IMG/VR virus record: IMGVR_UViG_3300036796_000279
Coordinates: 1-35,155 of that record
Direction: 5' to 3' (one strand)
Origin: a virus
Lineage: Duplodnaviria; Caudoviricetes
Length of the DNA stretch: 35,155 nucleotides
Shown piece after piece: positions 10,418 through 33,497 of this stretch. Both the position numbers and the translations under genes were made by a program. The notes beneath the pieces are model-generated. The model had not been told where the DNA came from and made no database searches. It saw only the letters and a list, made by a program, of their open reading frames with translations. The stretch's first letter is position 1. Each line of letters opens with the position of its first letter.

Positions 10418-11197
10418 ATGAAACTTGAAGCATCATTGAAGCATTTTAGCCCGCAGGGGCTGGCCTATACAGATTCGGCCAAATCCACTTCACCGGACCG
10501 GATCACCGGCACCGATATCATGGCCGCCCTTGGCTCTACCGCGTCAAAGGCAAAGTTTGGGCTTTGGGTATTCCTGGGCAAAAACGGCATCAGCTCCGGG
10601 GATGAGCAGAGAGCTGTTCAACAGCTTGCCAGCATCGCGCTGGAGTTCGCGCCAAAGAACGTACGCAAAGCAGCTGGGGGTCAGTTGAGGCAATGCATGC
10701 TCATGATGGCCCGCTTTGCCTTTACTGAGTATTCGCGTTCGGCGGCCAGCACAACGGACTGCAAACCCTGCAGCGGGAAAGGGATGATAGAGGCCTGGGA
10801 AGACGTTACCCGGTATCCTGGTTATGTCGGCGCGGATGGTGAAGAGAAAATTACCCCGTGGATCGAAAGGCAGTTGGTTAAAAAGCAATGCTCTCACTGT
10901 GAGGGTAAGGGCGTTACTTCGGCCAGATGCCGCTGCAAAGGCACTGGCACAGTGCTTGACCGCAAGGCCACCAGCGAACGTGGCGCACCGGTATTCAAAG
11001 AATGCGAACGTTGCACCGGGAAAGGGTTTGCTGGCATGCCATCGACAAACGTCTATAAAGCGATCCTGAGCCTTATTCCTGATTTGCACGTCAGGACGTG
11101 GACTCGCAACTGGAAGCCGTTCTATGACGAGCTGGTGAAGGAATGTTACGTTGCTGAGGGTAAGGCTGAGTCTGAATTTATGAAAGCGACTAAATAA
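10418..11197 (+). CDS. Q: Late antitermination protein Q (Zn-finger type)
   Basis: MKLEASLKHFSPQG..ITGTDIMAALG; CxxCxGxG repeats; TWTRNWKPFY; directly upstream of lysis genes. Confidence 0.9.
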   Translation: MKLEASLKHFSPQGLAYTDSAKSTSPDRITGTDIMAALGSTASKAKFGLWVFLGKNGISSGDEQRAVQQLASIALEFAPKNVRKAAGGQLRQCMLMMARFAFTEYSRSAASTTDCKPCSGKGMIEAWEDVTRYPGYVGADGEEKITPWIERQLVKKQCSHCEGKGVTSARCRCKGTGTVLDRKATSERGAPVFKECERCTGKGFAGMPSTNVYKAILSLIPDLHVRTWTRNWKPFYDELVKECYVAEGKAESEFMKATK

Positions 11198-11239
11198 TTG
11201 CCAATGGCAACAAAATTTTGCATTTTTGATGCATATAGC

Positions 11240-11269
11240 TTGATTTTGTCCGAAGTTGTCGTGTAAGCT
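11240..11269 (+). promoter_or_regulatory. Putative late promoter pR'
   Basis: TTGATT-N18-TAAGCT directly after Q and before terminators. Confidence 0.5.
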
Positions 11270-11313
11270 TCTAATCATGGAGTGTTGCGCCTGAAATGAC
11301 AACGCTCCCGATA

Positions 11314-11370
11314 GCCCGCCACCGTGCGGGTTTTTTTTCATTAAAGGGCTGCCATCGGGCGGCCTTTTTT
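11314..11370 (+). terminator. Two tandem intrinsic terminators (tR'-like)
   Basis: CCCGC..GCGGG-T8 (11314-11338) and GGCTGCC..GGCGGCC-T6 (about 11347-11370). Confidence 0.8.
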
Positions 11371-11410
11371 GTTTCCCTCACACAGCACCCGCTTAGCGAG
11401 GTGAGAGATC

Positions 11411-11752
11411 ATGAAAATGCCACATACCCCGACTAACTGGCCTGACTGGCTTGAACTATTTCAGAGCTGGTGGCGCGGAGAAACGCCGCTGGGCGCTGTT
11501 CTAATGGCGTTCATCATGGCTGCCCTGCGTATTGCATATACCGGAGGCGGCTGGAAAAAAATGCTGCTCGAGGGATTGCTCTGTGGAGCGCTGACGCTGA
11601 CGGTGGCCTCGGGGCTTGAATACCTGGAATGGCCGAAATCAATCTCTATCGCTATCGGCGGTGGCATTGGTTTTATTGGCGTAGAGCAGTTCAGAAAGCT
11701 TGTACTGAACGTGATTAACATACGTTTTGGAGGCGGTAATGCAGCAAAATAG
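11411..11752 (+). CDS. Lambda S-family holin
   Basis: MKM dual-start motif, three hydrophobic segments, GGGIGFIGVE. Confidence 0.9.
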   Translation: MKMPHTPTNWPDWLELFQSWWRGETPLGAVLMAFIMAALRIAYTGGGWKKMLLEGLLCGALTLTVASGLEYLEWPKSISIAIGGGIGFIGVEQFRKLVLNVINIRFGGGNAAK

Positions 11753-12155
11753 CCCTCGCGGCATTCGAAATAATAACCCGGGCAATATTCGCTGGGGCGA
11801 TGAATGGAAAGGTCTGGTATCAAAACCACAACGAACCGATAAATCATTTTGCCAGTTTACCGGCCCTGAATACGGTATCCGGGCGATGGTCGTTATTCTG
11901 CGCAACTATCAACGCAAGTATGCCCTGAACACTATCAGCGGCATTATCCATCGCTGGGCACCGCCGAACGAGAACAACACTCAGGCATATATCGATAGTG
12001 TTGCCCGGGCTTTAGGTGTGGAGGCAGACCAGCGAATTGATGTGACCGACAGCAGGGTAATGATTCCATTGCTGGAAGCCATCATTAAGCATGAGAACGG
12101 CCAGCAGCCTTACAGCTTTGATGTATTCGTTCGTGCTGTCGATCTGGCGGGCTAG
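11739..12155 (+). CDS. Endolysin (RGIRNNNPGNI-type lysozyme-like)
   Basis: PRGIRNNNPGNIR, RWAPPNENNT, IIKHENG; between holin and Rz; ATG 11739 with GGAGG. Confidence 0.85.
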   Translation: MQQNSPRGIRNNNPGNIRWGDEWKGLVSKPQRTDKSFCQFTGPEYGIRAMVVILRNYQRKYALNTISGIIHRWAPPNENNTQAYIDSVARALGVEADQRIDVTDSRVMIPLLEAIIKHENGQQPYSFDVFVRAVDLAG

Positions 12156-12157
12156 CC

Positions 12158-12616
12158 ATGGTATTAGCGCTAATCAAAGAGTACTGGAGAGTTTTCGCTT
12201 TAGGGATGCTGCTCCTGATGCTGCTGTTCACAGCAGAACTGGCATCGAGTGAGAAGAAGAGAGCCGATGCCGCTATCACAGAGCGCGACGAAGCAAAGGC
12301 CACCATCGCCGACATGCAGACCCGCCAGCGCGATGTGGCCGCTCTCGACTCGAAATACACTCAGGAACTGGCCGATGCCAAACAGACTATTGAAGAGCTG
12401 CGTGATGCCGTTGCTGCTGGTGATAAGCGGCTGCACCTCAACGCCACCTGCCCAGTGCGTAACTCCACCAGCACCCCCGGCGTGGATGATGTTGCCGCAC
12501 CCGGACTTACTGACGCCGCTGAACGGGATTATTTCCGTCTCAGGGAGCGAATCGAAACCAGCAACAAGCAAATAGCAGGGCTGCAGGAGTACATCAGGCA
12601 GCAGTGTTTAAGATAA
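12158..12616 (+). CDS. Rz: i-spanin
   Basis: N-terminal TM; QRDVAALDSKYTQELADAK..LQEYIRQQC. Confidence 0.9.
   Translation: MVLALIKEYWRVFALGMLLLMLLFTAELASSEKKRADAAITERDEAKATIADMQTRQRDVAALDSKYTQELADAKQTIEELRDAVAAGDKRLHLNATCPVRNSTSTPGVDDVAAPGLTDAAERDYFRLRERIETSNKQIAGLQEYIRQQCLR
12375..12575 (+). CDS. Rz1: o-spanin lipoprotein embedded in Rz
   Basis: +1 frame within Rz; lipobox LVISGC; Pro-rich PPAPPAWMM..PDL. Confidence 0.85.
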   Translation: MPNRLLKSCVMPLLLVISGCTSTPPAQCVTPPAPPAWMMLPHPDLLTPLNGIISVSGSESKPATSK

Positions 12617-12637
12617 GCCGAAAGGCGGGAGATAGTT

Positions 12638-12844
12638 ATGACTTTAGAAGAGCGTGTTGAAGCTCTAGAAGCGGATATGACTAAGATGAATATTCAGCAG
12701 CAAGAAGCTGATGCAGTGAGGGAAGTAGCGAGAAAGACTACTATTGAGGTGATTGCAAATGCGCGTCGCCCTGGCGGTATGTTGAATGCGGCCCAGATTC
12801 AGGCCGCTGAGTATAAATCTAGGTTCGGTATTAATCGCGGCTAA
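12638..12844 (+). CDS. Small coiled-coil protein with a tape-measure C-terminus-like motif
   Basis: GGGAG RBS; AVREVARKTTIEVIANARRPGGML. Confidence 0.7.
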   Translation: MTLEERVEALEADMTKMNIQQQEADAVREVARKTTIEVIANARRPGGMLNAAQIQAAEYKSRFGINRG

Positions 12845-13046
12845 TTTGTTTTAGGTTTGCAACCCATTCCTGCATTGGTTTGTTATCAACTTCAGATAGC
12901 TCAGCTATTAATTGTTTACGTGAGCTAGGATCAAGCTTAAGAGCAATAGCTAAGACTATCGTCTTTAAATCGTTAATCTCTGAGGCTGTAGATTCAGGGG
13001 TTGCAGTCGAAGAAGTAAAAGTAAAATTATGTTCGCTACTTTCCAT
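12831..13046 (-). CDS. Antisense moron gene, 71 aa
   Basis: AAGGA RBS; AT-rich; convergent 14-nt overlap with 12638-12844. Confidence 0.7.
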   Translation of the reverse strand: MESSEHNFTFTSSTATPESTASEINDLKTIVLAIALKLDPSSRKQLIAELSEVDNKPMQEWVANLKQISRD

Positions 13047-13164
13047 TTCTAGTCCTTATTTCAGAGGTAATCAGCCATCCCTCATTGTTGTGTGCGTCCA
13101 TGCCCTCACATGGACGGGCTGAGGTTCAATGATAGCCAGGAGCAGGAGAAATGGACACTAACCA

Positions 13165-13190
13165 GGGCCTCGCAATAGCGGGGCTTTTTT
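13165..13190 (+). terminator. Intrinsic terminator
   Basis: GCCTCGC-AATA-GCGGGGC-T6. Confidence 0.75.
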
Positions 13191-13197
13191 ATGCGCA

Positions 13198-13293
13198 TCG
13201 CACGCGCCAATCAGAGAGTCTTTCAGTAGTGAGCCTGGGTAATGCCGTTACCTCTCGGGCGGTATTGCCGTGCGACAGGCTCACACCTCAAAG
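13198..13293 (+). ncRNA. Putative structured RNA leader (nested stems with possible pseudoknot)
   Basis: GTGAGCCTG/CAGGCTCAC stem, inner GGTAATGCCG/CGGTATTGCC stem, bulge GTGCGA complementary to upstream TCGCAC. Confidence 0.5.
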
Positions 13294-13303
13294 GTAAACC
13301 ACT

Positions 13304-13480
13304 ATGCAACTTGGCAAGAAAAGCCGGAAGGGTAGACGCTGCATTATGCGGACTGACGCCACTCTAATCGTTAATAAGCGCGGAAAGGTTGAGGTGGTGC
13401 TTGGTTCGAATATCGACGAAAGCCACAAGCTCCGCACCGGAACCCCGTCAACTTTTAATCAATTAGGTAAAGCGTTATGA
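13304..13480 (+). CDS. 58-aa basic protein (not in ORF track)
   Basis: ATG 13304 after AAGG; TGA overlaps the ATG at 13477 (ATGA). Confidence 0.6.
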   Translation: MQLGKKSRKGRRCIMRTDATLIVNKRGKVEVVLGSNIDESHKLRTGTPSTFNQLGKAL

Positions 13481-14007
13481 AAAGAATTCAACTTAAGGAC
13501 GTAATGTCCAGCCTGCGTATCGTAGCCAATGAAACTGGCTATGAAGTTCACAACGCCGCCGGCTCCGCTAAATATGACGCTTGGGGTTATCGTCGTGAGG
13601 TTAACGGCATCCCTGAATACTTCCCGGATAAAATCAGCATGGAAGGCAAGGCAAAATCATCCAGCGCAAGCCAGATAAAAGTAAATCTGAATCTCGATAC
13701 TACGGATGCCCAGAAAGCGCTGGATGATATTCAGAAGATTATCAACGATAGCAGCCAGGCATTTGAATCATTTCAGGAGCGCGTCAGGAAGGAAACAACA
13801 AGCGTGACATGGAGTGGTTCTCTCGCGCTTGGTATCACTCGCGACATTAATGCATTGATTGAAAATGGTGTGGCCTCTAATGCAGAAAGTGAGCGTATTA
13901 AGGCAGTTATGGAAGAGGCAACAAAAAAAGCCGTTACTGATGCGGTGGCCACGGTCCTTAAAGACTTCCAAACTCGCGGACCTCTACGCCGGGCACTGAA
14001 CATTTAA
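13477..14007 (+). CDS. Hypothetical protein resembling both ends of the tape measure protein
   Basis: C-terminus MEEATKK..D..LKDFQTRGPLRRALNI versus TMP MQEAARK..D..LEDFQNRGQGRRLLGV. Confidence 0.75.
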   Translation: MKRIQLKDVMSSLRIVANETGYEVHNAAGSAKYDAWGYRREVNGIPEYFPDKISMEGKAKSSSASQIKVNLNLDTTDAQKALDDIQKIINDSSQAFESFQERVRKETTSVTWSGSLALGITRDINALIENGVASNAESERIKAVMEEATKKAVTDAVATVLKDFQTRGPLRRALNI

Positions 14008-14019
14008 TCAGAGGTATCT

Positions 14020-14619
14020 ATGCAGGTCACTATTGACGGTGTCCAGTATGCGCCTGTCTGCAATTCAGTTGGAGAGAAGAAATGCGGCGTTAATGGATGC
14101 TCCCAAAAACATCATGCCCGCGGCTTATGCCAGACTCACTATTTTAGACAAAAGCAATATGGACGATTTGAATTACTGGCTCGGCACGATTTAGAGCAGC
14201 GCTTTTGGTCTAGGGTTGAAAAAGGTAATGAATGTTGGATCTGGAATGGAGTAATCACTCCCCAAGGTTATGGTAATTGGACTTGGCGAGAAAATGGAAA
14301 TCTTAGAACTGATTCTGCACATCATTTCGCTTTCATATTATCTGGCAGAAAAATACCTGATGGTTACCATCTCGATCACCTTTGTAGAAACCGCAGATGC
14401 TGCAACCCAGATCATCTTGAGGCGGTAACGCCCAGGGAAAACACCTTACGTGGAATTGGGCCCAGCGCAGAAAATGCCAGGAAAACACATTGCAAGCGAG
14501 GACATGAGTTCACGGTCAGCAATACATACCTGAAAAATGGGAAGTATGGCGTATTAAGAGTCTGCAGACAGTGTGCTGCTGAATCGGCCAGGAAAAGGAG
14601 AGCGTCATGTCGCCGGTGA
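14020..14619 (+). CDS. HNH homing endonuclease
   Basis: RFWSRVEK..ECWIWNG, AHHFAF, LDHLCRNRRCCNPDHLEAVT..EN, KTHCKRGHEF; AT-richer than flanks. Confidence 0.9.
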   Translation: MQVTIDGVQYAPVCNSVGEKKCGVNGCSQKHHARGLCQTHYFRQKQYGRFELLARHDLEQRFWSRVEKGNECWIWNGVITPQGYGNWTWRENGNLRTDSAHHFAFILSGRKIPDGYHLDHLCRNRRCCNPDHLEAVTPRENTLRGIGPSAENARKTHCKRGHEFTVSNTYLKNGKYGVLRVCRQCAAESARKRRASCRR

Positions 14620-16070
14620 GAGTGAGTATCGACGGTGTTGATTATGCGCCCTGCAATAACTCCAGTCGTATTGGTGTGTGCATAACGACCCACAATCGCG
14701 CTGACGTTCTGCGCCGCGCTCTTGAGCAGCATCAGCAGTTCTTACCGCCTGGCGCGCTGGTGGTTGTTATCGACGACGGCTCTACCCCGGCGGCCACAGT
14801 TCCCGAGAACGTGCAACTGATCCGGCATGAGAAGTCGCTGGGCATCGTGGCTTCAAAAAACCGAAGTCTCGAATCGCTGGTGGATGCCGGCTGCGAGCAT
14901 TTGTTCCTTTGGGATGATGATGCCTGGCCGACTGCGCCGGGCTGGTGGGCTCCTTACATCGAATCCCCAGAGCCTCACCTGGCTTATCAATTTCATGATC
15001 TGGCCGGGCCGCGAAAGCTTAACGATATGGCCGTGTTACACCGGGATGATAAGCACGTCGCTTACACCGGACAACGCGGCGTCATGCTGTATTACCATCG
15101 CAGCGCCATTGAAGCGGTCGGTGGTTTCGATCCTGTCTACGGTCGAGGCATGTACGAGCATCCCGATTTGGCACTGCGCATCCACAACGCCGGGCTGACG
15201 TCATGGGCGTTTGCTGATGTAGTTGGTTCGGCTGCGCTGATTCATTCGATGGACGAACACGAAGAAGGTGTGCGCTCTATCCCGCGGCCTGAGCGTGAGG
15301 CGCTGGCGAAAGCCAATGCGGTCACCTACAGCGCCCGGCGCGACAGCGGATACACGGCTTATGTTCCGTTCCGCACCCCGCAGGACGTTGTGATCACCAC
15401 GCTGCTTACGAGCCAGCCAGACCCACAGCGTCCAACGAAGATGGCTGCTGATCCTGCTTTGCTGCAGGCGTGGGCATCGTCTATTCGTGGCGCTGCTGCT
15501 GTCGTGCTTGCCGATGAGCTGGAGACGGCGCCCGGCGGAGTCAGTCTGGTGAGTGTAGCTGTGCTGGAAATGAGCCCGTACTTTGCGCGCTGGCTGCATA
15601 TCTACCAGCACCTGCGCGATCATCCTGAGTATCGAAACGTATGGTGCACCGATGGCACAGACGTTGAGATGCTTAGAGAGCCCTGGGCAGAAATGGAACC
15701 CGGCATGATTTACGTTGGTTCCGAGCACAAGGTTTACGCAGATGAGTGGATGAAGGCCAATCACCACGGCAAAGCTTACGGTGAGTTCATCGACCGATAC
15801 CGTGACGCGCAACTGCTTAACGCGGGGCTGCTAGGTGGCAGTCGGGCTGACGTGATGGCGTTCGCCCACTACATCATCCGATTTCATTACCTGCAGACCA
15901 GCCATCGTTACTGGAAGATGGAGACGGCCCCGGCCACGCTCGTTGATATGGGTGCGTTCGGTATGGCGGCGAAGTCGTTCGGTGACCGGGTTGTGACCGG
16001 GCCGAAGGTCAACACGATCTTTAAGTCCGATGGGATCGGGAAGGAGTGCGCCTTTTGGAAACACAAGTGA
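14607..16070 (+). CDS. Two-domain glycosyltransferase (GT2 N-domain plus second GT-A-like domain)
   Basis: ITTHNR, VVIDDGS, GIVASKN, FLWDDD (DxD), GGFD..YG..EH.DLA.R; C-domain WCTDGTDV and LLNAGLLGG; no TM segment or signal peptide evident. Confidence 0.9.
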   Translation: MSPVRVSIDGVDYAPCNNSSRIGVCITTHNRADVLRRALEQHQQFLPPGALVVVIDDGSTPAATVPENVQLIRHEKSLGIVASKNRSLESLVDAGCEHLFLWDDDAWPTAPGWWAPYIESPEPHLAYQFHDLAGPRKLNDMAVLHRDDKHVAYTGQRGVMLYYHRSAIEAVGGFDPVYGRGMYEHPDLALRIHNAGLTSWAFADVVGSAALIHSMDEHEEGVRSIPRPEREALAKANAVTYSARRDSGYTAYVPFRTPQDVVITTLLTSQPDPQRPTKMAADPALLQAWASSIRGAAAVVLADELETAPGGVSLVSVAVLEMSPYFARWLHIYQHLRDHPEYRNVWCTDGTDVEMLREPWAEMEPGMIYVGSEHKVYADEWMKANHHGKAYGEFIDRYRDAQLLNAGLLGGSRADVMAFAHYIIRFHYLQTSHRYWKMETAPATLVDMGAFGMAAKSFGDRVVTGPKVNTIFKSDGIGKECAFWKHK

Positions 16071-16642
16071 AGTATGTGGTGGTCGGTCATCATGCTCGCC
16101 AGGCTCAAGCCGAAATACTGGCCAGCTCTCTTGGTGCTCATCTGCTGATTGACGACGGCGACCATGGAGCCAACTGGAATCACCGCCGTGCGCTTGAGTG
16201 GGCCGCCGGCCAGACCTGCCGGGTTGTAGTCCTCGAGGATGACGCTGTGCTTGTTGATGGCTTCACCGATAAGGTTACTGATTGGCTGGAACGGTTCCCC
16301 GATGCTCTGCTGAGCTTCTACCTGGGCACGGGCCGTCCGCCACAGTACCAGATGCAGATAGCCGAGCGACTTATCATTTCCGATAAGAGCCGATTGGACT
16401 ACATCACATTGCCAAGGTTGATTCACGGCGTCTGCTACAGCGTGCCGCCGCAGGCCATTGATCTCGTGCTCTCACGCTGGGATGCCAGCAAAGCCGCTGA
16501 CTATGCAGTGGGTGACGCGCACGGCGGCGCTGTTATCTATCCGTGTTACTCACTCGTTGACCATGCAGATGGTGAGCCGGTAGAGCGGTCGGTGGATGGC
16601 ATGCCGCGCACCGAGCGCCGTCGAGCATGGAGACTGGCATGA
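16067..16642 (+). CDS. GT25-like glycosyltransferase
   Basis: NHRRALEW..VVVLEDDA, SFYLG, HGVCY, SLVDH; GTGA overlap with the upstream GT. Confidence 0.75.
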   Translation: MKYVVVGHHARQAQAEILASSLGAHLLIDDGDHGANWNHRRALEWAAGQTCRVVVLEDDAVLVDGFTDKVTDWLERFPDALLSFYLGTGRPPQYQMQIAERLIISDKSRLDYITLPRLIHGVCYSVPPQAIDLVLSRWDASKAADYAVGDAHGGAVIYPCYSLVDHADGEPVERSVDGMPRTERRRAWRLA

Positions 16643-24717: not shown

Positions 24718-24953
24718 TCGACTCTCCCTGGCTGATGCTGATTTTCTCCCTGGCTGATCGCCTGGGGGAGTCTGACCCTCGAAAAATCGCCAACCTGCCG
24801 GCAGATATTCTTCTCTACTGGCAGGCCTGGTATTCGTTAACCGGAAACGCTGTTCAGGCTATCGGTGAACCGGCCCCGGTTGCCGCACCACCAAAAACCA
24901 ACCCAGTTGTTTCTCAGCAGTGCGCTGATGTTATGAGGATCCTCGGACAATGA
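24714..24953 (+). CDS. gpT-like portion of the chaperone (via frameshift)
   Basis: Open in the -1 frame from the slippery site; ATGA overlap with TMP. Confidence 0.8.
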   Translation, partial: LIDSPWLMLIFSLADRLGESDPRKIANLPADILLYWQAWYSLTGNAVQAIGEPAPVAAPPKTNPVVSQQCADVMRILGQ

Positions 24954-27949
24954 GTGATGTCGCAAGCCTGTCGGTTGCCCTGCACCTGAATTCCGCTGCT
25001 TTCAAATCGCAGATCACCGACGCGTACCAGAAGGCCGGCCAGGCCAGCAAAAAATTCAATGACCAGGCGACCGCGCAGGCAAACGAATTATCCGAGGCGA
25101 TCGCCAGAACCGTCAGCGCGGCCAAAAACATTGGCATGCAAGGCAATGAGTCTGGTCAGTTCTCCAGCGTTACCCGCGGCGCTGGCCAGCTCAACTTCGT
25201 GCTTCACGAAGTTGCCGCAGGCAGCAACGTTGCCAGCAGTACGATTATTAATGCCCTTATTCCGGCTGTTCACTCGCTTAAAGGCCAATTAGATGGTTCT
25301 GCCGGTGGCTGGAAAACACAGCAGGACGCCGCCCGCAATGCTGCTGCAGAATTAGCGGCAGCCGCGCAAAGCCAGATCGCCGCTGCTCAGGCAGAAAAAC
25401 AGGCCGCGCTTAACAAGGCGGCCATTGCTGAGAAAACTATTGCTGCAGCTCAGGCTCAGCGTGAAGAGGCGATTGCCCTAGACGAGTATTACGCCAAGCA
25501 AACGCAAATGAACAAGCTCTATGGTCTGAACGTCAGCTACCAGGAGCAGCACCTCAAAAACGAGCGCGCCATCATCGAGGCAAACCGCCTGGAATCCGGC
25601 GCGCTGGAAAAACTGAAAACTGTTAAAGCTACTGTGATGGCCGCTGACCTGGCCGAGGCAGAAGGTAAAGCCGCGCTGGTGGCGTCAACTGAGGCGGCAG
25701 CGGCAGCCAATACGCAGATGACTATCTCTCAGCGCATCGCGGCGACCAGCAGTCGCGCACTCAGCTCTGCAATGAGTCTGCTTGGTGGCCCTGTCGGTAT
25801 TGGGCTTAGCGTTCTGGCCGCTGGCGGCACTCTGATCTACAGCGAGTTTAAAAAGGCCGAGGAGCAGACCAAAAAGCTCAATACCGCAATTCTAGACCTT
25901 CACACCTCTTCCCTTGTGTCATTAACAGACCTAAAAAACCTGAATAATCAGCTTGGTGACACTGATGCCTCTATTGATGCTGTAACGGCCACCGCAAAAG
26001 CGGGTTTTAGTGGTCATCTTCTGACTGATGTAGCAACGCTGGCTAATGCATACGCCGAGGCTGGTGGTAGCGCCCAGGATCTTGTTAATAATCTCTCATC
26101 ACTGCGTGGTGACCCCATTGCCGCGATGGAAAAACTGACCTCCCAAGGCGTGGCATTAAATGAGTCTATAATTCAACAGGTTATAAGCTTAACCAAAAAA
26201 GGACAAACTGCACAAGCAACGCAAGTAATAATGGAACAGGCCCTAGAGGCTGAAAACGTCCGGCTGAAAGAACTCGGAGCACAGGCCGACACCTACCTCG
26301 ACAAATTAAAAAATCTTGGGCGAGAATGGGGGGCTCTTGGTGGTCTAAGTGAGGCTGTTGCCTGGGGGGATGTGCTAGGGAGAAATCAGAAAGATTTTGA
26401 GGATAAAACCCGACAGTTTCTGGCCGCAAGTAAAGCTGGTTATGCTGAAGCTCAGAGCGAGCGAATTAAAAACGCCGCTGGCCTTAAAAGCTATATGGAT
26501 GCAGGAACCAGCGCTGCGGAGAAACGTGCTGCGGCAATTAAGAAACTGAATAATAGTATTTATCAACCTGATTCAACCGATTATCAGCGAATCCTCAAAG
26601 GGATTAACGATGAATACGAAAAGTCCACCAAAAAACCAAAAGCCAGCGCCTCTGCTGGGATAACCGAAGGTCAGCGCGCTCTTGAGCAAGCCCAGCAACG
26701 CAATGTAGTTTTGCTGGAGCAAGCACAAACCACAGACAAGCAAACGGAATCGCAGCGTCAGCTTATTATCTTCGAACAAAAGATATCCAGCCTGAAGGGG
26801 GAGCATCTCACTGCCGATCAGCAAAGCCTAGTTAATATGCAGGCACAAATCCGCTCTCAACTTCAGTCGAACGTACAGCTTGAGAAAGAGGCGGCCTTAC
26901 GACAAACGGCAATGAAGTATCAGCAGGAGAGCATTAAGTGGGCTGAAGAAGCAGATGCCATGCAGCGTGAGGCAGCGCTGGCAGTAGAAAAATTCGGTAT
27001 GTCTGAAAGAGAGGCTGCTGATGCAGAAGCCCGTAACGCCATCATTAACCGCTTTAATCAGCGCCGTATAGCGCTGGAGAAAGATTTTACCGATCACACA
27101 TCAGCTGAGTATCAGACCCGGCTCGCTGACCTGGAGAATGCTCAGCAACGTGAGTTGCAGATAACCGAACAGACCAGGCAGCAGAAAATGGCTGCAGAAC
27201 AGGATTTCAGCGCTGGCCTGCGTAAGGGCGCTGTTGACTGGCTGGACTCTGCATCAAGCTACGCAACACAAAGCGCAAACCTCGTTAGCAACACTATGAG
27301 TGGGTTTGTAGATCAATTATCTGGCGCATTGAGCGGGAACAAAGCCAGTTGGCAGGATTGGGCAAATTCTGTATTGCAGTCAATGCAAAAGGTGATCCTC
27401 AACGCAATGCTTGTGAACAGTATTCAGTCTATGGGGGGCTCAAGTCTTTTCGGTTTCTTTGGCGGTGGATCAGGAGGCACAGCCGCTTCAGCGAGCGGGG
27501 GAACCTTTGGCGCTGGCGCATGGGATTCTGCCGCCTCAGGAGTGAAGTTTAATGCCAAAGGTGGGGTTTATGACTCGCCTTCGCTTAGCTCCTACAGCAA
27601 CGGCGTTTTCAATTCTCCTCAGGTATTCGCCTTTGCTAAAGGGGCTGGTGTATTTGCTGAGGCAGGCCCTGAGGCAATTATGCCACTGGCAAGGGGAGCA
27701 AATGGCTCACTGGGTGTAAGGGCTGTTGATGCTGGTGGCTCAAACTCTACAGAGACTTCATCGATGGGCGATCCCATTATTCAAATTACCCAGCACATCA
27801 GTGTATCCGGTAATGGCGATGCCGCTCTCAACCAAGCCATGCAGGAAGCGGCTAGGAAAGGCGCTCAGGATGGCGCTAAGTTGGCTCACCAGAAAATGCT
27901 GGAAGATTTCCAAAACCGCGGGCAGGGGAGGAGATTGCTGGGTGTTTAG
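24950..27949 (+). CDS. Tail tape measure protein
   Basis: 999 aa, Ala/Gln-rich helical; FNAKGGVY..FAFAKGAGVFAEAGPEAIMPL motif. Confidence 0.95.
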   Translation: MSDVASLSVALHLNSAAFKSQITDAYQKAGQASKKFNDQATAQANELSEAIARTVSAAKNIGMQGNESGQFSSVTRGAGQLNFVLHEVAAGSNVASSTIINALIPAVHSLKGQLDGSAGGWKTQQDAARNAAAELAAAAQSQIAAAQAEKQAALNKAAIAEKTIAAAQAQREEAIALDEYYAKQTQMNKLYGLNVSYQEQHLKNERAIIEANRLESGALEKLKTVKATVMAADLAEAEGKAALVASTEAAAAANTQMTISQRIAATSSRALSSAMSLLGGPVGIGLSVLAAGGTLIYSEFKKAEEQTKKLNTAILDLHTSSLVSLTDLKNLNNQLGDTDASIDAVTATAKAGFSGHLLTDVATLANAYAEAGGSAQDLVNNLSSLRGDPIAAMEKLTSQGVALNESIIQQVISLTKKGQTAQATQVIMEQALEAENVRLKELGAQADTYLDKLKNLGREWGALGGLSEAVAWGDVLGRNQKDFEDKTRQFLAASKAGYAEAQSERIKNAAGLKSYMDAGTSAAEKRAAAIKKLNNSIYQPDSTDYQRILKGINDEYEKSTKKPKASASAGITEGQRALEQAQQRNVVLLEQAQTTDKQTESQRQLIIFEQKISSLKGEHLTADQQSLVNMQAQIRSQLQSNVQLEKEAALRQTAMKYQQESIKWAEEADAMQREAALAVEKFGMSEREAADAEARNAIINRFNQRRIALEKDFTDHTSAEYQTRLADLENAQQRELQITEQTRQQKMAAEQDFSAGLRKGAVDWLDSASSYATQSANLVSNTMSGFVDQLSGALSGNKASWQDWANSVLQSMQKVILNAMLVNSIQSMGGSSLFGFFGGGSGGTAASASGGTFGAGAWDSAASGVKFNAKGGVYDSPSLSSYSNGVFNSPQVFAFAKGAGVFAEAGPEAIMPLARGANGSLGVRAVDAGGSNSTETSSMGDPIIQITQHISVSGNGDAALNQAMQEAARKGAQDGAKLAHQKMLEDFQNRGQGRRLLGV

Positions 27950-28016: not shown

Positions 28017-28448
28017 GTGAAAGGGATTGGCTTGGTTGTTCTGGTTGTCGGTGTCATATGGGCAATTGTTGCTCTGAATATGGATGTGAGTGTTGCCACA
28101 GGATATGGGAGGGTAAATAATATAGGATTGATGGCATCAAGACAGACTCATTTAATTTTTGCTGGTTTTTTATCTATTGCCGGTATTTTGCTAGTTCTAT
28201 TTGGTGATAAATTTAGCCTGTCCACTATAGAAAGGAAATGTCCTTTCTGTGCAGAATTAATAAGTAAAGAAGCAACAAAGTGCAAGCACTGTGGAATCGA
28301 TGTATCGCAAATTGAAACCCATAATTCAATAGCTGAAGATGTGACGCCTTCTGTAGCTCATGGATGGTTTAGCACCAAGGTAACGATAGGGATTGTCGTT
28401 GGTATATTCGCAGTTATTGTGTTACATATCGTTGTCTATAGAATGTAG
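28017..28448 (+). CDS. Moron: membrane protein with Zn ribbon
   Basis: Three hydrophobic segments; KCPFCAELI..EATKCKHCG; AT-rich. Confidence 0.8.
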   Translation: MKGIGLVVLVVGVIWAIVALNMDVSVATGYGRVNNIGLMASRQTHLIFAGFLSIAGILLVLFGDKFSLSTIERKCPFCAELISKEATKCKHCGIDVSQIETHNSIAEDVTPSVAHGWFSTKVTIGIVVGIFAVIVLHIVVYRM

Positions 28449-28488
28449 TTTGTATTATATTTTTCATGTTGATTTAAGGATGATGATT

Positions 28489-29172
28489 ATGCGCTTCTTG
28501 ATACCACTAACTATTTTGGTAGTACCAACTTTTGCATTTGCTGCTGCAGGAGATCAGACTTTATCTGTTGGGTACACACAGATACATTCATCAGGTTTGA
28601 AAGGATATTACAATCAGGTTGCAAATCTATATAGCGATGTAACAAATAGCGCTGCGTTATATGGCGGTCAAAAATCATCATTAGACATTGATAACTATAA
28701 GCAACCGGAAGGCATGTTCATCAGGTATCGTTATGAATACGATCATAGCCTTGGTGTCGTAGGGTCATTATCATATGCTGTGCAGGATAACAATATAAAC
28801 ACATCAAATGTTTACTCCAGATTTGGTGTGAATTATGAAGATGCATATAAGAACAATATAAGTAGCAACTATTTTTCTGCATTGATAGGACCATCGTATA
28901 GAATAAACAGTTATTTAAGCCTGTTGGCTATGGCTGGCATATCTTATAAAAGTGTAGAAACCAAGATAAAGGCGTTTTCTTACGAGAATGACCGGGTGGT
29001 AAATTCAGGTGCATATTCTGAAAGTGAGCATAAGTTTTCACCAGCTTACAGCCTTGGCGCTCAGGTTAATATCTACCAGGGTCTGGTAATTGATGCGGCT
29101 TATGAAGCATCATCTGGGGGAAGACAATGGAAAACAAACGGATTCACCGTAGGCATCGGTTATAAATTCTGA
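28489..29172 (+). CDS. Ail/Lom/OmpX-family outer-membrane beta-barrel
   Basis: Signal peptide, TLSVGY, RYRYE, GPSYRIN, AYSLGAQ.N, terminal VGIGYKF. Confidence 0.9.
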   Translation: MRFLIPLTILVVPTFAFAAAGDQTLSVGYTQIHSSGLKGYYNQVANLYSDVTNSAALYGGQKSSLDIDNYKQPEGMFIRYRYEYDHSLGVVGSLSYAVQDNNINTSNVYSRFGVNYEDAYKNNISSNYFSALIGPSYRINSYLSLLAMAGISYKSVETKIKAFSYENDRVVNSGAYSESEHKFSPAYSLGAQVNIYQGLVIDAAYEASSGGRQWKTNGFTVGIGYKF

Positions 29173-30813: not shown

Positions 30814-33497
30814 TGCCTGCAGCTATTCCTATTATTGGGGCCGTAGCTGCTGGAGTGGCTGCGTCCTATGAAGCCTACGGAATTGCGATGGCGATTACGA
30901 TTGCGGCGCAGATTGCGACACAGGCACTGACAAAGACTCCTTCTCTTGGCAATTATCGAGATAACTCAGAGCGTAAGCAGGTGCTGCGCGCGGCCGCCAG
31001 CGCAAAAACAGTGACTTATGGGCAGACGTTATCCGCGGGCACGCTTTTTTTCTCAGAAGAGCAGCCAGGCGAGCAGGAAGACGGCGAGCTGCTGCACCTG
31101 GCGATTACGCTGGCCGGTCATCCGCTTTCCAGTGTTGGTAAAATTTACCTGGGCGATGATGAAATCGCCACATATGCCGAGTACGCACAGTACGAAGTGC
31201 ATATTGACCGCCAGACCGCCGACCCCTATTTACTCGCTAACGCCCCATCCTGGAAAGCCGACATGATCGGCAAAGGCATCAGTTGGTTGCGACTCACGCT
31301 GAAATACAGCGCTGAAAAATTCCCTTCAGGCATTCCAAATGTGCGTGTCGAAAAGTTTGGGCGCCCGGTCTACGACCCACGCACCGGACAAACTGTTTAT
31401 TCGAACAATGCCGCGCTCTGCATTCTGGACTATTACCGCAACTACCTGAATGTGCCTGACAGTGACATTCTCTGGGACCAGTTTCAGGAAGCGGCCAATA
31501 TCGCTGATGAGCTTGTTAGCCGGGCCGATGGTGCCACGGAGAAGCGGTACACGATTAACGGCGAGTTCGATTTAAGCGAGAACAAAGCCAGCATCCTTGA
31601 AGCGATGCTTTCAGCCTGTGCCGGAGAGCCAACCTATACCGCAGGCAAGCACGGTATCCTTGTCGGGGCGTATTATGGCCCGGCCAGTCTGGTTATCACC
31701 GAAAACCAGTTAGCTGGCGATATTGAAATCATGCCAGAGGTGTCGCAGTCAGAGCGAGTGAATACTATAAAAGGGACGTTCACCGATCCGCTTCAGTTCT
31801 ACTCCGAAACAGATTTTCCGGCCGTATCGGTCAGCGAGTGGGTAACCGAGGATGGCGTAGAGATTTCGCAGGATATGAAACTCCGCTTCGTCACTTCGGA
31901 GTTCCAGGGCCAGCGCCTGGCTGACATCAAGCTGAAGCGTACACGTATATCACGCACGATGAACGTTGTGCTGAATCTGAGCGGGTACCGCTACCGGCCT
32001 GGTATGTACGTGAAAGTTAATTTCCCGACTCTTGCCATGAACAATGTTGAGATGCGCGTCACTGACTGGAAGTTTGGCGTGCAGAACGGCGTGCAGCTGA
32101 CGCTTAAACAGGAAACCTCGGATGTTTGGGGGGATGCGATCGGCAAGCCGATTGAGCGGCCGCCATTCACCCAACTTCCTCCGGGTGGAGTGGCCCAGCC
32201 TCAGAACCTGCGTTATACGGTCGAGGAAATTGGGCAGGTGGTGCAGGGAGTGTTGTCCTGGCAGAACATCGGGCAGGTTTCCTACAACAAAGTGATCATT
32301 CGGCGCGCCGGTGTTCCCGTCCTCTCTGTGCAGGTCCCGGGTTCATTTACCCGGCTAACCGGGTTGCCGCGCGACAGTTATACCGCCCATGTAATTGCTG
32401 TTAACCAGATGGGCGGCCAGTCACCGGAAGCTTTTCTGCAGTTCAACATTGATGCGCCGCCGGCGCCGTCGATCGTGGATATCGAGCAGGGATATTTTTC
32501 TGTCACGCTGAAACCACGGCTGGCCGAACTTACCAGCGTTTCCACGCAGTTTGATTTCTGGACCTCCGGAGAAACTAAGCTCGCCAATACTGATACGGCG
32601 ACGGTGGAGGCGCATGCCACGCGCGCGGGCATGGGCACGATATGGACGAGCAACGAGCTGCAGGTCGACCACACCTATTACTGGTATGTGCGCACAATTA
32701 ATGCCTTCGGCTCGTCAGCTTTTGTGGAAGTAGCTGCGCTGTGCAGCATGGACACCGGCAGCCTGATTGACCTGGTCGATGATGCTGTCCGGGATTCGGA
32801 CGCATTCAAAAATGTTGCTGACGGAGTGGATACCAACCTGGAAGGCATCATGGAAAACGCACTGGCCAATCACGGCAGCGTAGAACGCCAGTTCCAGCAA
32901 CTTGGGCAGACGCGTGCGGAAATCATGACAGTGCGGACTACTGTTGCCAACCTGGATGGGGCTTTCGCCGAGTTGGCCGATTATGTCCAGGCGCAGATTG
33001 GCCCGGATGGCGAACTGATGGCTGCCGTTAATCAGAAAATGACAGCAGAGGTTAAAAGCGATGGCACAGCGAAGGCAAGCTATACCCTCAACATGGGGAT
33101 CGTCAGAAATGGTGTGAAGTACAACACCGGATTCGGGATGTCTATTGAGCCCTCCGGCGATTCGTATAAATCGACAGTTGTGTTTGCTGCTGACCAGTTT
33201 GGGGTTTATACCGGAAATGACCCAGGGAACTATAAACCGGCCATGATCCTTAAAAACGGTCAGGCATTTTTCAACGAGATATTCACGGATTACGCTTCAT
33301 TTACACTGGCGAAAATCGGGCAGTGGCGCTCGGCTAACTATGTTCCAGGTAGCACCGGCACGCGTATGGATGCTGATGGCTCATTTGAAGTAAATGGTGG
33401 TGCGCCGGGCGGTGGTCGCCTCGTCATTAATGGCCCGCGCATTTCTGCTATCGATGCGAACGGGGTTGAGCAAGCAAGGTTTGGGTACCTGAAATGA
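30813..33497 (+). CDS. Central tail fibre / tip attachment protein (gpJ-like)
   Basis: 894 aa; VYDPRTG..YSNN.AL, FnIII-like YWYVRTINAFG, C-terminal VVFAADQF segment. Confidence 0.9.
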   Translation: MPAAIPIIGAVAAGVAASYEAYGIAMAITIAAQIATQALTKTPSLGNYRDNSERKQVLRAAASAKTVTYGQTLSAGTLFFSEEQPGEQEDGELLHLAITLAGHPLSSVGKIYLGDDEIATYAEYAQYEVHIDRQTADPYLLANAPSWKADMIGKGISWLRLTLKYSAEKFPSGIPNVRVEKFGRPVYDPRTGQTVYSNNAALCILDYYRNYLNVPDSDILWDQFQEAANIADELVSRADGATEKRYTINGEFDLSENKASILEAMLSACAGEPTYTAGKHGILVGAYYGPASLVITENQLAGDIEIMPEVSQSERVNTIKGTFTDPLQFYSETDFPAVSVSEWVTEDGVEISQDMKLRFVTSEFQGQRLADIKLKRTRISRTMNVVLNLSGYRYRPGMYVKVNFPTLAMNNVEMRVTDWKFGVQNGVQLTLKQETSDVWGDAIGKPIERPPFTQLPPGGVAQPQNLRYTVEEIGQVVQGVLSWQNIGQVSYNKVIIRRAGVPVLSVQVPGSFTRLTGLPRDSYTAHVIAVNQMGGQSPEAFLQFNIDAPPAPSIVDIEQGYFSVTLKPRLAELTSVSTQFDFWTSGETKLANTDTATVEAHATRAGMGTIWTSNELQVDHTYYWYVRTINAFGSSAFVEVAALCSMDTGSLIDLVDDAVRDSDAFKNVADGVDTNLEGIMENALANHGSVERQFQQLGQTRAEIMTVRTTVANLDGAFAELADYVQAQIGPDGELMAAVNQKMTAEVKSDGTAKASYTLNMGIVRNGVKYNTGFGMSIEPSGDSYKSTVVFAADQFGVYTGNDPGNYKPAMILKNGQAFFNEIFTDYASFTLAKIGQWRSANYVPGSTGTRMDADGSFEVNGGAPGGGRLVINGPRISAIDANGVEQARFGYLK

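Follow-up and report, generated by a model that had tools for sequence, protein, structure and literature searches.

P0001, a protein of 176 aa encoded on the + strand of the window (the whole stretch of DNA analysed, 35,155 nucleotides), belongs to a modular family located in the lysis-to-terminase interval, with an Ati-like N domain, a middle part resembling the central tail fibre J and a C-terminus of tape-measure protein (TMP) type. The reading that we favour, with a probability of about 0.5, is that P0001 would be a late-made decoy against tail-assembly blockers of the Tai/Tab type. The modules and their fixed order, the placement of the TMP-like end at the C-terminus, the position in the late region and the purifying selection in relatives are read from the sequences, and the role itself is proposed. 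Tai and Tab are known systems, and the question addressed here is how phages devoid of the matching anti-gene evade them. If the decoy reading is true, each copied piece predicts an attacked tail surface and offers a bait for its blocker. The features concerned are the following:

12638..12844 (+), 68-aa ORF, possible PGG-type TMP end (weak)
13190..13306 (+), conserved untranslated leader, predicted long hairpin, with its outer stem over the ribosome-binding site
13304..13480 (+), 58-aa ORF between the leader and P0001, overlapping the start of P0001 by 4 bases
13477..14007 (+), P0001, modular accessory protein, between the lysis genes and the HNH, glycosyltransferase and terminase genes
13477..13647 (+), folded N domain, residues 1-57, the family's constant part (AlphaFold2, hhalign, HMM search)
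13669..13764 (+), strand-DT-helix linker, residues 65-96; first half weakly like the TMP N-end (at family level only), second half like the first J coiled-coil helix
13819..13896 (+), residues 115-140, resembling the turns that follow in the J coiled coil (HMM of 17 family segments)
13897..14007 (+), copy of a TMP C-terminus, 'DF-x-x-RG' type, residues 141-176 (BLASTP, shuffles, HMMs, codon comparison)
27827..27949 (+), matched stretch at the C-terminus of the phage's own TMP (TMP gene 24950-27949)
32766..32885 (+), coiled-coil start of the phage's own central tail fibre J, residues 652-691, resembled by the family linker and second helix

Genomic setting and overall identity

In the window, which is a lambdoid prophage or phage, the genes are arranged as Q, holin, lysin, Rz, accessory genes, HNH, terminase, head and tail, some of these gene names being presumed from gene order and general knowledge. 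P0001 is encoded on the late strand, in the accessory interval between the lysis and packaging genes, which is the position occupied by Ati. The ORF 13477-14007 and both peptides quoted in an earlier reading of this DNA (hereafter the sequence-only reading) are present in the window, the peptide given as residues 65-100 being in fact residues 65-96.

No match naming a function was obtained for P0001 in Pfam, PHROG, NCBIfam or PADLOC, and none passes the Pfam or NCBIfam cut-off. The rows for QatB, LmuB and SctL (PADLOC, NCBIfam) are taken as chance matches because they lie far below the cut-off where one is given and are located on the helical part of the protein. In total, 147 homologues of P0001 were retrieved, and P0001 was matched in 2 of 50,697 phage records. 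The model of the whole protein has no fold match at E<=0.001 in PDB or BFVD, another fold search returned generic helices only (Z<=5.8), and an Atlas search returned the family's own clusters and weak rows only. P0001 does not match the TMP families PF09718 and PF24622, its 176 residues are encoded outside the tail operon, and its TMP likeness is confined to the last 36 residues. Likewise, the beta-prism PF09327 has no match in P0001, and many relatives carry a piece of it. In the literature covered, which includes the available text of two reviews (PMC12908700, PMC13434031) and a minority of the subscription papers, neither this family nor decoys made of tail pieces were found described.

A C-terminus of tape-measure type

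The C-terminal TMP likeness of P0001 is real, as judged from sequence comparisons. Indeed, (i) BLASTP aligns the last 36 residues of P0001 with the last 40 of the phage's own TMP at 15/36 identities and an E value of 2e-4, with a single 4-residue gap and up to the last residue of both proteins, (ii) the score against the whole TMP is reached by none of 5000 shuffles of the last 40 residues of P0001, and by 16 of 2000 shuffles when the two whole proteins are compared, (iii) an HMM of 14 family ends, from which TMPs were excluded, matches, among 8782 ORFs, each of the eight TMP rows with a DF-type end, at the last residue (E 5e-11 to 6e-6), the next matches being family members, (iv) the reverse HMM, built on 4 TMP ends, retrieves the family, with P0001 at E 0.035, and (v) a blind search of 401 genomes yields two matches, one family gene and one TMP end. 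The alignment and the shuffle test thus uphold what the sequence-only reading had claimed for this end.

TMP ends are of two types, 'DF' and 'PGG', and the family copies each. The phage's own TMP, which had been named as the source, does not hold up in that role: the end of P0001 scores 69 on the foreign TMP of G283 and 59 on the TMP of its own phage. Over the last 19 codons, codon positions 1 and 2 agree with those of the own TMP at 24/38 and position 3 at 6/19; because of these third positions, a recent DNA copy from the phage's own TMP is ruled out.

A middle part resembling the central tail fibre J

The middle of P0001 resembles the start of the J coiled coil, indirectly, through its relatives, over residues 73-140. 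With an HMM of the linker, built on 36 family segments, the four best non-family matches are J proteins, all at the coiled-coil start, and the phage's own J ranks first among them (E 0.05). In the opposite direction, an HMM of 8 J segments retrieves family rows as 37 of the best 40 matches listed (best family E 8.5e-5), two of the remaining ones being further J proteins. P0007, which is 47% identical to P0001, aligns over about 48 residues to the J coiled-coil region (E 0.07). For the second helix, the HMM of 17 segments, P0001 included, places J rows at seven of the top eight non-family ranks, with residues 671-691 of the own J at E 0.017; compared pairwise with J, residues 115-140 of P0001 are equalled by 104 of 2000 shuffles. 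The assignment to J therefore rests on relatives, since the direct scores of P0001 are poor (E 79 on the J-only HMM).

Further J pieces are found in the relatives. The start of the beta-prism is detected by a J-only HMM in 76 of 180 family rows at E<0.01, the best non-family row being at E 0.31, and motifs resembling the J C-end score at E 0.03-5. A stretch equal to residues 916-929 of lambda J, corresponding to the trigger of the HepS defence, is present in 31 of 92 representatives and absent from P0001; its key Phe is found in 25 of those 31 (rows read by eye).

The sequence-only reading had also seen the TMP N-terminus in this region. In P0001 itself that match is not significant (1065 of 20000 shuffles score as high; E 140 on a TMP N-end HMM), and the second half of residues 65-96 matches J better than the TMP N-end. 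A weak likeness may exist at the level of the family, as 13 of 92 representatives pass, P0001 marginally, against 0-5 of 92 for 11 control TMP windows.

The N domain and its likeness to AtiEcA

The N domain is predicted by AlphaFold2 as a helix followed by a four-strand meander (mean pLDDT 90). It is likely, and not proven, to be a remote homologue of AtiEcA. In a comparison of profiles by hhalign, it aligns end to end with AtiEcA over 52 columns (P 1.1e-4, probability 57%). In an HMM search with the N domain, the top eight non-family ranks are AtiEcA-family rows, the best at E 0.006 in a database of about 8900 sequences to which 12 AtiEcA-family sequences had been added by hand, and the phi80 Ati appears at E 0.28. 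The first 50 positions of PHROG 29765 match both AtiEcA (E 0.045) and the family's N domains (E 6e-4). The link is graded as remote because weaker tests are not significant (hhalign with the full-length alignment, P 0.06; a first HMM, whose score was equalled by 3 of 5000 shuffles; a pairwise comparison) and because AtiEcA-family identifiers are missing from the matches listed in a profile search of 1.84 billion proteins.

The N domain alone has no fold match at E<=0.001 in BFVD and a best Z of 4.5 in the other search. Prediction of a complex between TaiEcA and the N domain gave a score of 0.00, which carries no weight either way. The idea that the N domain is itself a copy of the J C-end is unsupported by the HMM searches. 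An adjacent tai gene in opposite orientation, a feature of Ati, is absent beside P0001, and a TaiEcA-like search found no tai homologue anywhere in the window, which may lack the prophage ends.

Family pattern, selection and covariation

The family was sampled by its N domain alone, giving 94 representatives at 50% identity, of which two long repetitive rows were dropped. Modules were called above the 99th percentile of shuffles for each HMM, and a few of the J calls are false because five J HMMs were pooled. A TMP end is carried by 65 of the 92 representatives, in 63 of these within 12 residues of the stop; a J piece is carried by 55, and 49 combine both. The smallest members (L027, L029; 95 aa) consist of the N domain, a short linker and a TMP end. 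The DF-type end, found in 8 of 78 tree rows, is the minority form; its distribution on the N-domain tree, a weak tree of 56 columns, requires at least four changes, which suggests a modular exchange of the ends. In 39 of 44 loci, the family gene is followed, in the same orientation, by a gene for a glycosyltransferase or for the terminase. Six loci have a tai homologue just upstream, phi80 (order tai, ati, orf66) among them; of the 45 carrier loci with at least 2 kb upstream, 6 have one, and several of these are near-copies.

Two family members, L095 1399-2166 (-) and L097 1231-1809 (+), show an N part that looks J fibronectin-type-like by eye, followed by a J junction helix and a PGG-type TMP end.

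The N domain and the PGG-type TMP-like end are under purifying selection in relatives. The pN/pS ratio of the N domain is 0.13-0.32 in 12 of 13 pairs, the remaining pair differing at one base, and that of the ends is 0-0.42 in 13 of 13 pairs; these ratios are uncorrected, the pairs are non-independent and the TMP-like ends were measured on the PGG type.

Covariation with the cognate TMP type, which the sequence-only reading had proposed as a check, was assessed on 19 genes, each paired with the TMP encoded downstream within one record. Ten loci were left out because their TMP end duplicates one included before (L003, L006, L011, L013, L016, L018, L019, L021, L023, L029), as were four loci with no usable linked TMP (L005, L009, L028, L097; L089 excepted; contig ends), and the TMPs of 10 metagenome loci are absent from the set. 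The gene/TMP end types are DF/DF in 2 pairs, DF/PGG in 1, PGG/DF in 3 and PGG/PGG in 13, so that 15 pairs match, P0001 included (12.6 expected from the margins), and four are mismatched. No significant association results (p 0.11 by permutation of the scores, 0.15 by Fisher's test and 0.79 for the 13 PGG pairs taken alone), at a low power given three DF genes among the 19. The mismatched loci G041 and G283 did not reveal another gene with a TMP end. With a non-significant N-end, a higher score on a foreign TMP and no covariation, the view that P0001 carries both ends of its own phage's TMP fails.

Comparison with known systems

AtiEcA (phi80 orf64, PMC11364771) shows a remote likeness to P0001 over the whole 57-residue N domain and is encoded, like P0001, between the lysis and packaging genes and in the same orientation. 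However, AtiEcA is a stand-alone protein of 63-76 aa located beside its own tai, whereas P0001 adds about 120 residues of tail look-alikes.

A second phi80 protein, orf66 ('ORF x171.28; similar to N15 gp59'), is a member of the same family and matches 108 of 120 homologues among those listed. It shares with P0001 the linker, the J-like pieces, a TMP-like end and the leader, but differs by its N domain (winged-helix-like by eye only) and by an end of PGG type. The orf66-type N domain (PHROG 4365/16910) is absent from P0001 and is present in P0005 and P0006, which are 78-83% identical to P0001 over the C-terminal 63%. No function of orf66 was found in the literature searched, and a search of E. 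coli DNA returned only phi80-like copies, over 116 bases. The family is distributed over PHROGs 17079, 13555, 29765 and 16910 and bears the NCBI names 'DUF1983 / phage tail tip fiber protein' and 'Fur-regulated protein'. These database names derive from the J piece and mislabel the family as a tail fibre; the family would account for many proteins misnamed 'tail tip fibre' or 'Fur-regulated protein'.

The Tab/anti-Tab pair of Pseudomonas phage JBD26 was compared by its description: anti-Tab is a late gene near the terminase and is not described as a TMP mimic in the portions of PMC10884400 consulted, and Tab belongs to a Pseudomonas Mu-like system, with another host and tail type. As for HepS of Gifsy-1, a short J peptide is an epitope of the defence (PMC13043305), and its equivalent is the stretch found above in a third of the representatives. 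Since the free peptide activates HepS, no protection would be expected from a copy, and P0001 is devoid of the stretch.

Possible role of P0001

As a decoy, P0001 would be expressed late and would bind a blocker of the Tai/Tab kind, so that the real tail tips could assemble. The blocker would be supplied by another prophage or by a satellite, since the window encodes none. Given the low number of copies per virion at which the imitated parts are produced, a small soluble mimic could titrate out a blocker that acts stoichiometrically. Several published observations fit this scheme: Tai escape mutations map to the C-terminal region of J, and Tai is cancelled by AtiEcA, itself encoded by a late gene, with an interaction between the members of a homologous pair seen in a two-hybrid assay (PMC11364771); Tab sensitivity maps to the TMP's C-terminal region, and anti-Tab is a late gene whose product binds Tab (PMC10884400). 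The missing covariation is compatible with a decoy, because a decoy must match only the target of the blocker and not its own tail.

Counting against the decoy are the absence of tai from the window and its rarity among the carrier loci. To our knowledge, no enterobacterial blocker of these TMP ends has been described. In phi80, moreover, the loss of orf64 cut the titre though orf66 was intact (PMC11364771); since orf66, which has no Ati-like domain, failed to compensate that loss, the J and TMP pieces by themselves were not sufficient against TaiEcA.

The sequence-only reading had proposed a decoy that titrates either a tail-assembly blocker or a TMP-sensing defence, or else a dominant-negative poison of competitor tails. 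The copied TMP C-end and the late-region position are retained from it, and a decoy for blockers is the leading form. A sensing defence, activated by a trigger, is disfavoured as the target of the decoy, because HepS is turned on by a free J peptide of 32 residues (PMC13043305); for the representatives that carry the equivalent stretch, it would be a drawback in the face of sensor defences. Both the Ati-like N domain and the part derived from J in the middle had been missed and matter more for the mechanism.

It is unlikely, although the best of the other readings, that P0001 is an assembly helper or escort, whose TMP end and J helices would dock it on its own nascent tail tip, where it could either hold a metastable coiled coil or bring the Ati-like domain to the site of action of the blockers. 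The TMP end is a free C-terminus in 63 of 65 cases, as in a real docking element, and the 95-aa members look like a domain with an address tag. However, docking of this kind finds no echo in covariation with the resident TMP, and the gene is optional, given its 2 matches in 50,697 phage records and the fact that phi80 lacking orf62-66 was propagated and tested (PMC11364771).

Somewhat less probable, and ranking below the decoy, is the dominant-negative poison, by which P0001 made from a prophage would co-assemble with an incoming J trimer or with a TMP-binding site and stall the tail. The copied parts are trimeric axial elements: the three-helix coil at the C-terminus of the lambda TMP sits in the tip lumen (PMC10721106) and the helical shaft of lambda J anchors the closed tip (PMC11101478). 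A poison would also be in keeping with the four mismatched pairs among the 19, and with a conserved leader of its own that could uncouple P0001 from the late operon. Against this, P0001 lies in late-gene orientation, while tai and tab are encoded on the other strand and the strand of P0001 is that of the anti-genes; the interval 11100-14100 has three promoter-like sites, a number not above chance, each of them on the minus strand; and there is no sign of self-avoidance, because the 15 pairs of shared end type exceed the 12.6 expected.

A small share is left for readings not thought of. Mere recombination debris, that is scraps of tail genes without a role behind a small domain, is highly improbable: both the number and the order of the pieces are variable, a scored TMP end is missing in 27 of 92 representatives and lambdoid late regions are mosaic, but pN/pS is well below 1 in the TMP-like end, silent sites have decayed while residues are kept, and two end types are fixed at the C-terminus across clusters of less than 50% identity.

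The decoy reading could be tested cheaply, phi80 orf66 being present in common laboratory E. coli strains.

A possible library of tail-tip epitopes

More tentatively, with odds somewhat against it, lambdoid phages could maintain an exchangeable library of tail-tip epitopes (TMP ends, the J coiled-coil start, J beta-prism pieces, the J C-end) on small late proteins acting as multi-target decoys, and anti-Tai proteins could work likewise. The latter extension is drawn from a gene located right after a Tai homologue, which starts with a copy of the J C-end type present in these phages. This ORF of 111-117 aa (L003, L004 and L011, 9538-9873 (+); L034, 655-1008 (+)) begins with a J C-end-type copy detected by a J-only HMM at E 3e-5 to 1e-4, the reverse search matching six J rows within one residue of their end; in L003, L004 and L011 it directly follows a reverse-strand TaiEcA homologue (27% identity). 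It is a candidate for a new anti-Tai that would be a J-end decoy. If the library idea is true, the copied pieces form a map of tail surfaces attacked by undiscovered defences.

Another small accessory family (L038, 8929-9300 (+); L111, 7832-8131) carries a terminal helix resembling the J coiled coil (E 0.006), and its homologues are located beside a gene of the P0001 family or just after the TMP gene.

Leader and neighbouring genes

The leader is common to 9 of 10 loci aligned. Its hairpin has a z-score of -2.95 (2 of 200 shuffles are as stable), none of the 30 pairs of the stem is compensatory, and no Rfam match at the gathering score was obtained. The stem pattern occurs once each in 47 of 130 loci, just 5' of the family gene wherever its position is readable. 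The 58-aa ORF that follows is likely coupled translationally with P0001; an ORF 67% identical to it occupies the same place in L025, and this version ranks third on a J C-end HMM (E 4.2), on which the version of the window has no score. Further upstream, the 68-aa ORF scores at E 0.009 to the end of L087, E 1.1 on the family PGG HMM and E 28 on a TMP-only HMM; given this weak PGG-type likeness, the window may carry both end types.

Between these ORFs, a 71-aa ORF at 12831-13046 (-) corresponds to phrog_6806 (E 1e-14) and lies in an AT-richer stretch that interrupts the late operon, an arrangement as for tai; it has no Tai, PADLOC or usable Atlas match. Downstream of P0001, the HNH gene (14020-14619, +) starts with nearly the same 15 residues as the glycosyltransferase that follows (14607-14660), and is placed as if it had been inserted at the glycosyltransferase start with duplication of the 5' end. 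Two glycosyltransferase genes (phrog_1579, phrog_854) are encoded at 14607-16642 (+), between lysis and terminase. Finally, at 28017-29172 (+), a zinc-ribbon membrane protein and an outer-membrane gene of the Ail/Lom family are inserted between the TMP and the distal tail genes.
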